Positions 50,108-52,463 of a stretch of 64,000 bases of DNA are shown here, in pieces. The position numbers and the translations under genes were made by a program. The DNA lies in the sequence record PQ014731.1. One strand, given 5' to 3'. How positions within the stretch are numbered: the first letter of the stretch is position 1; each line of letters opens with the position of its first letter. This DNA comes from Escherichia phage VB-EcoM-WM. The notes below the pieces were generated by a model. The model did not search any database. It had not been told where the DNA came from and worked only from the letters and a program-made list of their open reading frames with translations.

Positions 50108-50458
50108 TCAGTAGATGTTTTGTTTAATCTCTATTCCAAACTTTTTAAACGAGTCAGCAGCAAGCATGAATTTACGAGCCGCTGATGGGTTAGAAGTATG
50201 CACGAAAATCTTCACGTTGTCAACTACAGGAGGCTTACCAAATACAAATTTTTCCTCCAGCATAGACAGGCAATCGTACCCTTCAAATACCTCTCCAAGA
50301 TCGTTGTCCATGTGCCACTCAGAAACGCGCCTGTAGAGCTTTCCCTTATCGTTAATAAAATCCATAAACTCAGAGGAATTCTTTAGCCAAAGAGCATCTG
50401 GGAGCCCATAATTTGACGGATCTCTCAAGTCATCCAGCCACACAATCAACTTCTTCAT
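50108..50458 (-). CDS. hypothetical protein (116 aa)
   Basis: ORF track; coupled to sirtuin gene. Confidence 0.45.
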   Translation of the reverse strand: MKKLIVWLDDLRDPSNYGLPDALWLKNSSEFMDFINDKGKLYRRVSEWHMDNDLGEVFEGYDCLSMLEEKFVFGKPPVVDNVKIFVHTSNPSAARKFMLAADSFKKFGIEIKQNIY

Positions 50459-51390
50459 TGCATATAGTCCTCGTTGTGGAAATAGCAGTCAAGTATCTCA
50501 CGGCGTTCCTGCTCCAGGAGGCAATTCCACACATCTTCTGTGTAGTTTCTACGAATGAAGTTTACCATGCCGTAAAACTCTTCGTCAACACGTTTAAAGA
50601 TATCATCATCCCAAATCTTCCAAGCTTTACCCCTCATTACGGCCTTCCGTGCCAAATAGTATGGAGACTTGATCTTCAGCTGCAGATCATAAGGGTAGTA
50701 AGGCTTACGAATCATATACCCTTCACCTCTTGTTTCTGCAGCTAATTCTTTTGCATAGCTGAACGGAATTTCACGCACAGTGTGAGGACGTTTTGCACCA
50801 AGGTATTTGGCAATCCCATCTAAAGCTGCTTCTGGTAGCATTATTCCAGAATCATTATATCTGCAACCTATCAAATATGCGCCATGATCTTCCTGAACAA
50901 TATGCGGATCTGAAGGGTGACAAATTTCAAACATGAATGTCATGTTTTCATGACCCATAACCTTCTTGATAAGATCTAAATTACCACATTGCTCCTGGAT
51001 TGTTTCCTTTGCAAGGTTACAATATGGAGAATCAAGAGACCCTGTTGTTGAGAACAACAGTTCACCTTTGTGAGATGATACCACACCAAGGAATCCGTTC
51101 TTTTTCTCTACCGCCGTCACAAGCTTATTGTCAGGCAGGTTGGTGGAGTTTTCTCCCAAGTTAAACACTTTTGTGAAGGGCCATGCCACAACATTTCCTT
51201 CATTACCGACAACAATGCCCCGGCACTCCAGTAAACGAGGGGACAAATGCCATAAATTGTTGTAAAATACTTTTCTGGCATATTTATAGATCTTTAACCC
51301 AAGATCTGGGTAATATCTACTGGTTACAAGACCTTTGTCAACTAGGTCGTCTGCATTAAAATACTTCATCATACGTTCCTCATTTGTCAT
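50455..51390 (-). CDS. Rnl2-like RNA ligase (nucleotidyltransferase superfamily)
   Basis: EKKNGF (motif I), FMFEI (III), EGYMIRK (IV), LKIK (V); start may be internal ATG at 51372 after GAGGA. Confidence 0.6.
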   Translation of the reverse strand: MTNEERMMKYFNADDLVDKGLVTSRYYPDLGLKIYKYARKVFYNNLWHLSPRLLECRGIVVGNEGNVVAWPFTKVFNLGENSTNLPDNKLVTAVEKKNGFLGVVSSHKGELLFSTTGSLDSPYCNLAKETIQEQCGNLDLIKKVMGHENMTFMFEICHPSDPHIVQEDHGAYLIGCRYNDSGIMLPEAALDGIAKYLGAKRPHTVREIPFSYAKELAAETRGEGYMIRKPYYPYDLQLKIKSPYYLARKAVMRGKAWKIWDDDIFKRVDEEFYGMVNFIRRNYTEDVWNCLLEQERREILDCYFHNEDYMQ

Positions 51391-51433
51391 TTTGTCAGTC
51401 TATCCTGCCACACAAATAACCTAGTGTCAACAC

Positions 51434-51462
51434 TTGAAATTAACAAAACAGTTAGGTATACT
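51434..51462 (+). promoter_or_regulatory. sigma70-like promoter (TTGAAA-17-TATACT) in divergent region
   Basis: Hexamers read directly upstream of 51491. Confidence 0.4.
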
Positions 51463-51490
51463 ATCATTAAAATTAAAACGGAGTGCCGCT

Positions 51491-51901
51491 ATGTCTAAAA
51501 TGCTATATATCGTGCGTGGTCTACCAGGGTCTGGCAAATCAACACTGGCAAATGCGCTATCTTTAGAAGGTCTGTATCCACATTTTGAGAACGACATGTT
51601 CTGGTACGACGATGACGGCAATTACAACTGGGATGCAAGTAAAGTAACACTTGCAGCAAAATGGTGCAAAGATAACGTAGAAGATATGATGCGTATGGGA
51701 TACGACCGTATCGTGGTAAGTAATACGTTTACAAAAGAAAAACATGTGCAAGAATATGTTGACATGGCAATCAGTCATGGGTATAGTTATACCGTAATCG
51801 TGGTTGAAAACCGCCACGGTAATAAAAGCATTCATGATGTTCCAGACAGGGTCGTGGACCGTATGGAACGCCAGCTTAAAAACTGCATTAAACTTAAATG
51901 A
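51491..51901 (+). CDS. P-loop kinase, polynucleotide kinase-like
   Basis: Walker A GLPGSGKST at N-terminus; small kinase architecture; AACGGAG RBS. Confidence 0.6.
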   Translation: MSKMLYIVRGLPGSGKSTLANALSLEGLYPHFENDMFWYDDDGNYNWDASKVTLAAKWCKDNVEDMMRMGYDRIVVSNTFTKEKHVQEYVDMAISHGYSYTVIVVENRHGNKSIHDVPDRVVDRMERQLKNCIKLK

Positions 51902-51908
51902 GGAATGT

Positions 51909-52463
51909 ATGAAATACTTTGTAACAAGTGACACACACTTTCTCCACCAGCGGGTCATGGAGTTTGACTCGTGTCAAAAACACAGATCTCAGTATGATCA
52001 CAATCTTGACAGTATGAATGCTGGAATCATCACCGAGTGGAACTCTGTTGTGTCACCTGCAGACACTGTGTTCCACTTGGGGGATATTGCGTGCACTAAT
52101 GATAAGAATATCAACAACTTACTTCCAGATATTCTAAATATGTTGAACGGACATATTATTCTTGTTCGTGGCAACCATGACACAAGGACGACTGTCAGAA
52201 TTATGAAAGAGTTCTATCATGAGGTTGTAGATTATTACGAGTTTCGCCACAACAAGAATTTGATCTGTATGAGTCATTACCAGTTTGCAACGTGGAACAG
52301 AAAGCATCACGGATCAGTCCAACTGTTCGGTCATGCTCACGGAACCACGCAACAGTTGTTTGGCAGGCAGTTTGATGTCGGTTGGGATGTGTGGGGGAGA
52401 CTCTTACCATTAGAAGAGGCATACCGTATTGCAATGAGTCTTGCTATTGACAGCGGGGAGTAA
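51909..52463 (+). CDS. calcineurin-like metallophosphoesterase
   Basis: Ordered motifs SDTHF, GDI, GNHD, GHAH. Confidence 0.7.
   Translation: MKYFVTSDTHFLHQRVMEFDSCQKHRSQYDHNLDSMNAGIITEWNSVVSPADTVFHLGDIACTNDKNINNLLPDILNMLNGHIILVRGNHDTRTTVRIMKEFYHEVVDYYEFRHNKNLICMSHYQFATWNRKHHGSVQLFGHAHGTTQQLFGRQFDVGWDVWGRLLPLEEAYRIAMSLAIDSGE

Follow-up and report, generated by a model that had tools for sequence, protein, structure and literature searches.

Six genes lying between positions 48610 and 52463 of the window (the whole 64,000-nucleotide stretch that was analysed) appear to form a phage-encoded module for healing and sealing RNA ends, a reading to which we assign a probability of about 75%. The window belongs to an rV5-like Vequintavirus and is 97% identical to phage HMD-6 and 95-97% identical to V5-like phages, and the module would most likely serve to mend RNAs, probably tRNAs, that host defence nucleases have cut. 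In the predicted pathway, a 136-aa kinase would phosphorylate the 5'-OH end; a metallophosphoesterase, a cREC (cyclic-phosphate processing receiver-like) protein or both would open and remove the cyclic phosphate; and an Rnl1-type ligase would join the 3'-OH to the 5'-phosphate through a lysyl-AMP intermediate on K96. A Sir2-family protein and a MazG-like protein may remove by-products (a 2'-phosphate or ADP-ribose species) or contribute in another manner. This reading is based on the observed gene families, conserved active sites, layout of the operon, conserved linkage and gene fusions, from which we infer every enzymatic activity, the substrate and the identity of the enzyme that acts on the cyclic phosphate. 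An earlier note on this DNA had proposed that kinase, phosphoesterase and ligase are encoded by three separate genes, with a metallophosphoesterase in the place of the HAD phosphatase of T4, and the profile and fold matches, linkage and fusions described below bear this out. The core of its heal-and-seal interpretation stands, but its Rnl2 family assignment and its placement of the phosphoesterase first in a transcription unit do not, and its account was incomplete: it missed the cREC, Sir2 and MazG-like genes that share a transcription unit with the ligase and bring the module to six genes.

The open reading frames of the ligase (50455..51390, minus strand), the kinase (51491..51901, plus strand) and the phosphoesterase (51909..52463, plus strand) are as first noted. 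Not all three are first in their transcription units, as had been claimed, because the phosphoesterase gene is the second of its unit and starts 7 nt past the stop codon of the kinase. The minus-strand unit consists of the genes for the ligase, the 116-aa cREC protein (50108..50458), a predicted 253-aa Sir2-family NAD-dependent enzyme (49338..50099) and, last, a predicted 237-aa MazG-like nucleotide pyrophosphohydrolase (48610..49323), tightly packed and closed by a terminator: the start of cREC overlaps the stop of the ligase by 4 nt, and the next two intergenic gaps are 8 and 14 nt. The intrinsic-terminator-like hairpin (48585..48603, minus strand; AGCCGGGGCGATCCCGGCT followed by TTACTTGTTT) begins 6 nt past the MazG stop codon, and the Gotham record carries an ARNold terminator prediction at the same site. 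Ligase and kinase genes diverge from an intergenic region (51391..51490) at which the sign of the GC skew flips. The divergent promoter proposed for this region is half supported. On the plus strand, TTGAAA-17-TATACT (51434-51462) matches the consensus and coincides with a PhagePromoter prediction in the Gotham record. The minus strand carries a perfect -35, TTGACA (51430-51425), separated by 3 nt from that of the plus strand. A good -10 is missing at a spacing of 16-18 nt, the candidates being CAGGAT (17 nt) and TAGACT (22 nt); this pairing of a -35 with a poor -10 was read by eye, and the promoter scan of the intergenic region returned zero acceptable minus-strand sigma-70 sites. Another promoter-like sequence fits the consensus at 11 of 12 positions; it is located within the kinase ORF (51759-51787) and may be due to chance, since 36 promoter-like sites were found in the scanned region where 22.8 were expected.

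Profile searches of the kind first suggested placed the ligase, kinase and phosphoesterase each above the curated Pfam cut-off (RNA_lig_T4_1, AAA_33 and Metallophos, respectively), and none of the three proteins reached the cut-off of an NCBIfam family. The longest ORF of the ligase encodes 311 aa; the true start is probably at 51372 or 51369 (M7 or M8), giving 304-305 aa, since homologues begin at this point and it is closely preceded by a GAGGA Shine-Dalgarno sequence. The predicted protein is an ATP-dependent RNA ligase of the Rnl1 (T4 RnlA) family and not Rnl2-like as had been thought: it scores 55.7 bits against PF09511 (RNA_lig_T4_1; curated cut-off 28.3, E 8.4e-15), has no match to PF09414 at E <= 0.01, and in its AF2 model (pLDDT 88.9) resembles T4 Rnl2 (2hvr) with a TM of only 0.39, the 25th rank in the fold search. 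Among 120 homologues listed, a precomputed PF09511 assignment is present in about three quarters and absent in the remainder. The sole PDB match of a profile of 26 homologues is T4 Rnl1 (2c5u, 3.5e-13); single-sequence PDB searches with the ligase and the kinase gave nothing significant, and the matches came with profiles. Foldseek aligned the ligase model with T4 Rnl1 at a TM of 0.64-0.66, with Rnl3 and the Trl1 ligase domain also near the top; for fungal Trl1 ligase domains the TM is 0.59-0.62 and the E-values (1e-11 to 1e-10) are near those of T4 Rnl1. DNA ligases rank far lower, and the protein, by family, is neither a DNA ligase nor a capping enzyme.

The nucleotidyltransferase motifs I, III, IV and V that had been recognized in the ligase are present as K96-x-N98-G99, F154-E155, E223-G224 and K239-x-K241, invariant in 26 homologues, so that every catalytic-motif position checked for conservation is kept. 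The upstream Arg (R57) and Lys-x-Phe (K74, F76) specific to Rnl1 are also present. R57, K74, F76, K96, G99, E155, E223, G224, K239 and K241 are all invariant in the 26 ligase sequences and align onto conserved T4 Rnl1 motif residues, which we take to be R54, K75, F77, K99, G102, E159, E227, G228, K240 and K242. The phage protein is shorter than T4 Rnl1 (311 versus 374 aa), and its alignment to 2c5u stops at query position 238, leaving no counterpart of the T4 C-terminal domain (T4 Rnl1 residues about 255-374). It scores 38.9 against the equivalog model TIGR02308, whose cut-off is 242, and is thus by sequence a member of the Rnl1 family but not an RnlA equivalog. The C-terminal domain of T4 Rnl1 confers tRNA specificity; since the phage ligase lacks a matching region, a tRNA target is not established.

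The kinase gene encodes a stand-alone P-loop protein resembling 5'-OH polynucleotide kinases, as had been supposed. It scores 42.7 bits against AAA_33 (curated Pfam cut-off 27, E 8.8e-11) and matches the polynucleotide kinase family phrog_505 at 5.7e-10. Within its P-loop GLPGSGKST (residues 10-18), the pattern G10-x-x-G13-x-G15-K16-S17 is invariant, as are D35 and the lid residue R108. The most similar folds to its AF2 model (pLDDT 83.9) are polynucleotide kinases, the top Foldseek matches being 1ly1 (T4 Pnk, 1.7e-6), 4gp6 (CthPnk), 2ia5 and 4xrp. Two features count against the RNA-repair reading. One is the weakness of the profile matches to PDB entries, among which PSTK, Pnkp1 (4xrp), T4 Pnk (1ly1) and CthPnk (4gp7) appear at 2e-4 to 1e-3. 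The other is that the kinase family, with E-(N/A)-D35-M-F-(W/F), lacks an Arg three positions beyond the catalytic Asp: this position, W38 in the window protein and Phe in the consensus of the profile, aligns with the Arg of RDDFR in Pnkp1, and in T4 Pnk the Arg is presumably Arg38. The 136 aa correspond to the kinase domain only, with no C-terminal HAD (DxDxT) 3'-phosphatase domain.

The 184-aa phosphoesterase was correctly recognized as a calcineurin-type metallophosphoesterase, with a PF00149 (Metallophos) score of 28.5 bits (curated cut-off 21.5, E 2.5e-6), a match to phrog_547 at 1.6e-51, and all five motifs (DxH, GD, GNH(D/E), H and GHxH). Across 24 sequences the corresponding residues (D8/H10, G58-D59, G88-N89-H90, H123 and H142/H144) do not vary, and the predicted binuclear metal site is complete. 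Its profile has one strong match in the PDB, 1xm7 (aq_1665, 1.4e-23), and matches neither the CthPnkp phosphatase 4j6o nor the lambda phosphatase 1g5b at E <= 0.1, which by sequence assigns it to the aq_1665 subfamily and not to that of lambda phosphatase and CthPnkp. A point against the RNA-repair reading is that aq_1665, the sole close relative with a solved structure, has no known function.

Linkage of these genes was surveyed within 3 kb of the ligase relative in 83 phage loci whose ligases are 36-49% identical to that of the window. A member of the kinase family is present in 73 of the 83 loci and a member of the phosphoesterase family in 63, with both in 57. In 11 phage loci the kinase is fused to the N-terminus of the ligase in one protein of 421-432 aa. 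Cardiobacteriaceae possess a kinase-ligase fusion followed by a phosphoesterase of the same family as that of the phage, and in the cyanobacterial Leptolyngbyaceae a single 712-aa protein comprises AAA_33, Metallophos and RNA_lig_T4_1 domains, its healing domains matching CthPnk (3.5e-11) and the CthPnkp phosphatase 4j6o (2.5e-24) as well as 1g5b. In freshwater phage contigs the kinase-phosphoesterase pair also occurs close to ligases of the Rnl2 family, and the phosphoesterase family adjoins the kinase in unrelated phage contigs. T4 Pnkp is active on DNA as well, and an ATP-dependent DNA ligase gene is located 2.5 kb from the module (46698-47981), with which the module might heal and seal DNA ends. 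This alternative is very unlikely and was rejected: a terminator intervenes between the DNA ligase gene and the module, the module's ligase is of the Rnl1 type with DNA ligases far down its fold-search ranking, and in PCC 7375 an RtcB gene is located 1.6 kb from the fused kinase-phosphoesterase-ligase gene.

The only functional data found are the transposon tables of the relative Bas54, and our literature searches found neither a biochemical nor a genetic test of these proteins, nor any experimental study of the module. Each of the six Bas54 genes can carry transposon insertions on E. coli K-12 and is dispensable there, as expected of an accessory counter-defence function. As a point against the reading, the Bas54 comparison tables that were retrieved, which are for unspecified hosts, showed no depletion of insertions: log2 fold changes ranged from +0.13 to +0.43, and the five genes with retrieved q values had q of 0.75 to 1.0. 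There is thus no known host in which the module is needed. These tables bear on the possibility that neighbours of unrelated function have come together: a ligase serving mainly in tail-fibre attachment as T4 gp63 does, a nucleotide kinase, and a phosphoesterase acting on small phosphoesters or signalling nucleotides. The name 'RNA ligase 1 and tail attachment protein' has been transferred to many records, the kinase lacks the Arg at Asp +3, and Iyer et al. term it a 'nucleotide kinase' (PMC9503650). [quoted passage not shown] We consider unrelated function improbable, and a role in tail-fibre attachment was rejected on the linkage, the fusions and the insertion tolerance of the Bas54 ligase.

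Co-transcription of the ligase with the cREC, Sir2 and MazG-like genes opens the possibility of an NAD-dependent 2'-phosphate route. The cREC protein scores 53.3 bits against PF20274 (cut-off 27, E 4.5e-14), and its receiver-like acidic active site is present, with D9-D10, D51-N-D53, N90-P91 and K96 invariant in seven homologues; in GenBank the HMD-6 gene is labelled a cyclic-phosphate processing receiver domain protein. The Sir2-family enzyme (PF02146, 9.3e-27; phrog_2162, 1.8e-108) has the motifs GAGLS (9-13), TNVDD (89-93) and H109 but lacks the zinc-ribbon cysteines, with zero Cys between residues 110 and 148. The MazG-like protein matches phrog_671 (6.3e-22) and no Pfam family; its HMD-6 label is nucleotide pyrophosphohydrolase, and a MazG gene is included in the V5-type neighbourhood (PMC9503650).

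In a yeast-type variant of the pathway, cREC or the phosphoesterase would open the cyclic phosphate to yield a 2'-phosphate/3'-OH end before the ligase seals, and the 2'-phosphate left at the sealed junction would be moved to NAD by the zinc-less Sir2, which would act like Tpt1/KptA and whose ADP-ribose cyclic-phosphate product would be handled by cREC and MazG. This route was proposed by Iyer et al. (PMC9503650) and is consistent with the sharing of one unit by the four genes, with the missing zinc ribbon, and with the proximity of the ligase model to fungal Trl1 ligase domains (TM 0.59-0.62, as against 0.62-0.66 for T4 Rnl1). We regard it as doubtful. Just 14 of the 83 loci have Sir2 and cREC together with the ligase whereas most have the kinase and the phosphoesterase, which argues that the core pathway does not need them. 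To our knowledge, no sirtuin has RNA 2'-phosphate activity. Furthermore, the binuclear phosphoesterase could strip the phosphate wholly, as CthPnkp does (PMC2190708). A joint reading, likewise unlikely, is that the six genes combine a complete eukaryal-type 2'-phosphate tRNA ligation pathway in a bacterial virus with a portable analogue of T4 Pnkp. The zinc-less sirtuin may then replace Tpt1 as an NAD-dependent RNA 2'-phosphotransferase, cREC may be the cyclic phosphodiesterase, and the aq_1665-type phosphoesterase and mini-kinase may be a pair that many phages combine with Rnl1- or Rnl2-type ligases. The 2'-phosphate ligation in this reading has already been proposed in print, as a prediction.

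The end-healing and sealing module has parallels in three known systems. T4 Pnkp and Rnl1 repair tRNA-Lys following cleavage by PrrC. The phage module has the same ligase family and catalytic motifs, the same kinase fold and a predicted heal-then-seal logic, but its kinase is separate and has no HAD phosphatase, a metallophosphoesterase taking the phosphatase role; the C-terminal ligase domain and the Arg at Asp +3 of the kinase are the other T4 features that it lacks. With the Pnkp/Hen1 system of Clostridium thermocellum it shares the predicted chemistries of a P-loop kinase, a binuclear metallophosphoesterase and an ATP-dependent ligase, and in cyanobacteria CthPnkp-like kinase and phosphatase domains are fused to a homologue of the phage ligase. 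In contrast to bacterial Pnkp, a single polypeptide, the phage has three separate genes on two strands, and its phosphoesterase and ligase are of the aq_1665 and Rnl1 types, unlike those of CthPnkp; no Hen1 or other methyltransferase was found among the neighbour genes scanned. Fungal and plant Trl1 plus Tpt1 resemble it in combining a ligase of related fold and a polynucleotide kinase with a cyclic phosphodiesterase (candidate, cREC) and an NAD-using enzyme (Sir2), whereas the phage candidates for cyclic phosphodiesterase and 2'-phosphotransferase, whose activities are predicted (PMC9503650), have folds unrelated to those of the 2H and Tpt1 enzymes.

The module is already known, being named in many GenBank records and described in 2022 (PMC9503650). 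Iyer, Burroughs, Anantharaman and Aravind defined a sirtuin-centred phage RNA-repair neighbourhood of type 2, with Escherichia phage V5 and Proteus phage Mydo as prototypes; RNA repair was predicted independently for the V5 neighbourhood in their section 3.7.3, and the catalytic activity of cREC is a prediction only (PMC9503650). The window contains the same gene set, a sirtuin with a T4-like tRNA ligase, cREC, nucleotide kinase and MazG, together with the calcineurin-like phosphoesterase that may or may not accompany them, in the same phage group, and there is no substantive difference. With the ligase instead of the sirtuin as the point of reference, the phosphoesterase becomes a frequent component (63 of 83 loci), and the occasional ones are the sirtuin and cREC (14 of 83). 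If the RNA-repair reading is true, V5-like phages, themselves candidates for therapy and biocontrol, would carry their own built-in countermeasure against RNA-cutting defences, as would many uncultured phages that bear the kinase-phosphoesterase pair. The module would also supply enzymes whose specificities are unexplored, namely a short ligase of the Rnl1 type, an RNA kinase of 136 aa, an end-healing phosphoesterase of the aq_1665 type, the cREC protein and a sirtuin possibly acting on RNA. With the genomic observation already in databases and the literature, it is biochemistry and genetics that would now be of value.

The tRNA cluster with a Lys-anticodon tRNA-like gene that had been noted downstream was located at 55399-56122. 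The tRNA-like gene (55868-55964, UUU anticodon) is 97 nt long and contains a 26-nt insertion that folds as an ordinary variable-region extra arm, away from the intron position. This odd tRNA is conserved among module-carrying rV5-like phages, and the gene set of the module resembles a eukaryal tRNA-splicing toolkit, such that the module might process the phage's own unusual tRNAs instead of defence damage. We consider this highly improbable, and splicing of the phage's own tRNAs was rejected, given the site of the insertion and the lack of a splicing endonuclease among the ORFs scanned (46.7 to 56.5 kb); in addition, some relatives with the same module have normal 76-nt tRNA-Lys genes, and most loci that bear the triad of kinase, phosphoesterase and ligase have no such tRNA. 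Elsewhere, a tRNA-Pro region is interrupted by HNH; its junctions were read by eye, because the MAFFT alignment misplaces the 3' half.

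The window is a segment of a Vequintavirus genome, since the best megablast match to its 49300-53000 region is Escherichia phage HMD-6 (97.2% identity) and the remaining ones come from V5-like phages, among them FV3, the BASEL phages DrSchubert and WalterGehring, and rV5 variants; 119 phage records match the region, 117 of which cover at least 80% of it. These records already name an RNA ligase, a polynucleotide kinase or 3'-phosphatase/5'-polynucleotide kinase, a phosphoesterase, a cyclic-phosphate processing receiver domain protein, and Sir2. The module has already been described for the V5-like group itself, because PMC9503650 covers the V5-type neighbourhood and proposes that its products make 2',3'-cyclic phosphate RNA ends fit for ligation, the sirtuin behaving in a KptA-like manner; the cREC domain was defined in a 2021 jumbo-phage paper by the same authors. 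Only minor refinements are new here: ligase-centred linkage statistics, fusions, and the assignment of the phosphoesterase to a subfamily.

The idea of RNA healing and sealing put forward in the earlier note is sound in outline and the feature is real, with all three reported open reading frames present: ligase (50455-51390, minus strand), kinase (51491-51901, plus strand) and phosphoesterase (51909-52463, plus strand). Its boundaries need correcting, as the gene spacing, the terminator and the arrangement of kinase and phosphoesterase define a module of six genes in two divergent units, 48585-52463. The minus-strand unit opens with the ligase, whose stop shares 4 nt with the start of the cREC-domain gene (50108-50458), followed after 8 nt by the Sir2 gene (49338-50099), after 14 nt by a MazG-like gene (48610-49323), and 6 nt beyond that by a strong hairpin (48585-48603) and a T-rich tract, where a terminator is also predicted in the Gotham record. 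In the plus-strand unit, only 7 nt separate the kinase stop from the phosphoesterase start, so that the phosphoesterase comes second, although all three genes had been placed first in their units. A promoter-like site upstream of the kinase (TTGAAA-17-TATACT), also predicted in the Gotham record, is back-to-back with a perfect TTGACA on the minus strand, for which no good -10 was found. Both gene orientation and the sign of GC skew switch at the ligase/kinase intergenic region, and the cumulative GC-skew minimum falls in the same bin (50001-52000). A near-consensus sigma-70-like site (51759-51787, plus strand; TTGACA-17-TATAGT, 11/12) lies within the kinase gene, some 120 nt before the phosphoesterase begins, and may be a chance occurrence or an internal promoter.

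The ligase had been called Rnl2-like, but profile, residue, fold and C-terminal comparisons identify it as an Rnl1-family enzyme with its own short C-terminal module. The 311-aa protein matches RNA_lig_T4_1 (PF09511, E 8.4e-15) and not the Rnl2 family PF09414 in Pfam, and it scores far below the cut-off of an NCBIfam equivalog model. Its relatives of about 300 aa number at least 1681, and a profile built from 26 of them finds only T4 RNA ligase 1 in the PDB (2c5u, 3.5e-13; 9do4). In the 2c5u alignment, R57, K74, F76, K96-x-N-G99, E155, E223-G224 and K239-x-K241 align with conserved Rnl1 motif residues, which we take to be R54, K75, F77, K99/G102, E159, E227/G228 and K240/K242 of T4 Rnl1. The AlphaFold model (pLDDT 88.9) is nearest to T4 Rnl1 (TM 0.64-0.66; 20-22% identity), archaeal Rnl3 and fungal Trl1 ligase domains, with T4 Rnl2 far lower (TM 0.39); the final stretch of some 65 residues is helical and fails to align with the C-terminal domain of T4 Rnl1. 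Three in-frame ATGs begin the gene. Judging from the position of GAGGA, 4-7 nt upstream of the second and third, and from the N termini of homologues, which begin there, the real start is probably 51372 or 51369, so that the longest reading frame would over-extend the N terminus by 6-7 codons (51369-51390, minus strand). The length of the coding sequence differs between public records (918 versus 936 nt).

The 136-aa kinase is hit by AAA_33 (8.8e-11) and by the PHROG family for polynucleotide kinases. It belongs to a very large family, with more than 8000 clusters of stand-alone proteins of roughly 130 aa, in which the P-loop, D35 and R108 do not vary. Its profile matches the PDB weakly, the near-full-length matches being the RNA-end kinases PSTK, Pnkp1, T4 Pnk and C. 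thermocellum Pnk (CthPnk), and the folds nearest to its model (pLDDT 83.9) are the kinase domains of T4 Pnk and CthPnk. Three residues after the catalytic Asp, the phage family has Trp or Phe whereas Pnkp1, like T4 Pnk and CthPnk, has Arg. The 184-aa phosphoesterase matches Metallophos in Pfam, and all five binuclear-metal motifs are invariant among 24 homologues. The phosphatase role proposed for it stands as a prediction, but its subfamily differs from that of bacterial Pnkp: among solved structures, only Aquifex aq_1665 (1xm7, 1.4e-23), a protein of no known function, is closely related, and the phosphoesterase profile reached neither the CthPnkp phosphatase domain (4j6o) nor lambda phosphatase in the PDB.

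Iterated profiles built on the window proteins were searched against 83 loci: 80 viral loci with ligase relatives (36-89% identity) and three from GenBank. Within 3 kb of the ligase relative, 73 loci have the kinase family, 63 have the phosphoesterase family and 57 have both, usually on one strand. A search that began with the kinase led to freshwater phage contigs (L085-L088) in which kinase stop and phosphoesterase start overlap; this phosphoesterase belongs to the same family (E about 1e-47), and an Rnl2-family ligase (PF09414 plus PF21189) lies 1.8 kb downstream. Because the same pair occurs near Rnl1-type and Rnl2-family ligases, it behaves as a portable healing cassette common to phages with either. 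Fusions are the strongest evidence that kinase, phosphoesterase and ligase activities would work in one RNA-repair pathway. Eleven loci encode an N-terminal kinase and C-terminal ligase in a single 421-432 aa protein; in Cardiobacteriaceae (L093, L095, L096, L119), kinase and ligase are fused in a protein of about 490 aa, after which comes an aq_1665-type phosphoesterase; and in Leptolyngbyaceae, a single protein of about 710 aa joins AAA_33, Metallophos and RNA_lig_T4_1 domains, one of the cyanobacterial fusions among L094-L122 being that of Leptolyngbya sp. PCC 7375 (L109, 3726-5864). The first two Leptolyngbyaceae domains match CthPnk kinase (3.5e-11) and CthPnkp phosphatase (2.5e-24), with an Rnl1-type ligase domain where CthPnkp has its own. 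RtcB is encoded 1.6 kb downstream of the fused gene in PCC 7375, and no Hen1 was seen beside the fused gene at the one cyanobacterial locus examined.

The cREC and Sir2 genes are present at only 14 of the 83 loci, all in relatives of roughly 146 kb; most loci have the core triad without them, which suggests that they are add-ons. A 2'-phosphate intermediate, and with it Sir2, may take part in the repair. Sir2 retains its NAD-binding motifs and catalytic His (H109), and its zinc-ribbon module is absent, as there is no Cys between residues 110 and 148. These features are more in keeping with an NADase or ADP-ribosyltransferase-type sirtuin than with a protein deacetylase, its annotation in many records.

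No biochemical study of the module was found in the literature, and the sole functional data come from a HIDEN-SEQ preprint (10.1101/2025.11.20.689424) on phage Bas54, which has the identical six-gene layout (bas54_0206-0211). All six genes accept abundant transposon insertions on E. coli K-12, and in the comparison tables retrieved they are not depleted (log2 fold change +0.13 to +0.43), which fits an accessory function whose trigger is absent. An essential role of the ligase in tail-fibre attachment is argued against by this tolerance, in contrast to the insertion-intolerant N-terminal domain of T4 rnlA.

The analogy with T4 and the tRNA-Lys genes near the module in several genera make tRNA a plausible, inferred substrate, although the ligase lacks the T4 C-terminal domain. 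The tRNA cluster reported in the window is present (55399-56122) and includes a tRNA-like gene whose anticodon is UUU (Lys) (55868-55964, plus strand; Rfam tRNA 37.5 bits; MFE -34.8 kcal/mol, z -3.9). The gene reaches 97 nt through a 26-nt insertion in its variable region, which folds into an extra 5-bp hairpin. ARAGORN gives it no type; it is named tRNA-Lys in the DrSchubert and Gotham records and conserved in three rV5-like loci (L001-L003), and in related genera the tRNA-Lys genes close to the repair genes are of the ordinary 76-nt kind. The 97-nt gene might encode a nuclease-resistant or decoy tRNA-Lys. Further along the plus strand (56131-56570), an HNH endonuclease gene (56169-56510) lies within a gene for tRNA-Pro(TGG), whose 5' piece runs to about 56161 and whose 3' piece picks up again at about 56523. 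Because ARAGORN finds tRNA-Pro in HMD-6, DrSchubert and L003 and not in the window, the gene looks disrupted here; it is without nine nucleotides, CGCCTGATT, the 5' strand of the anticodon stem, which DrSchubert has.
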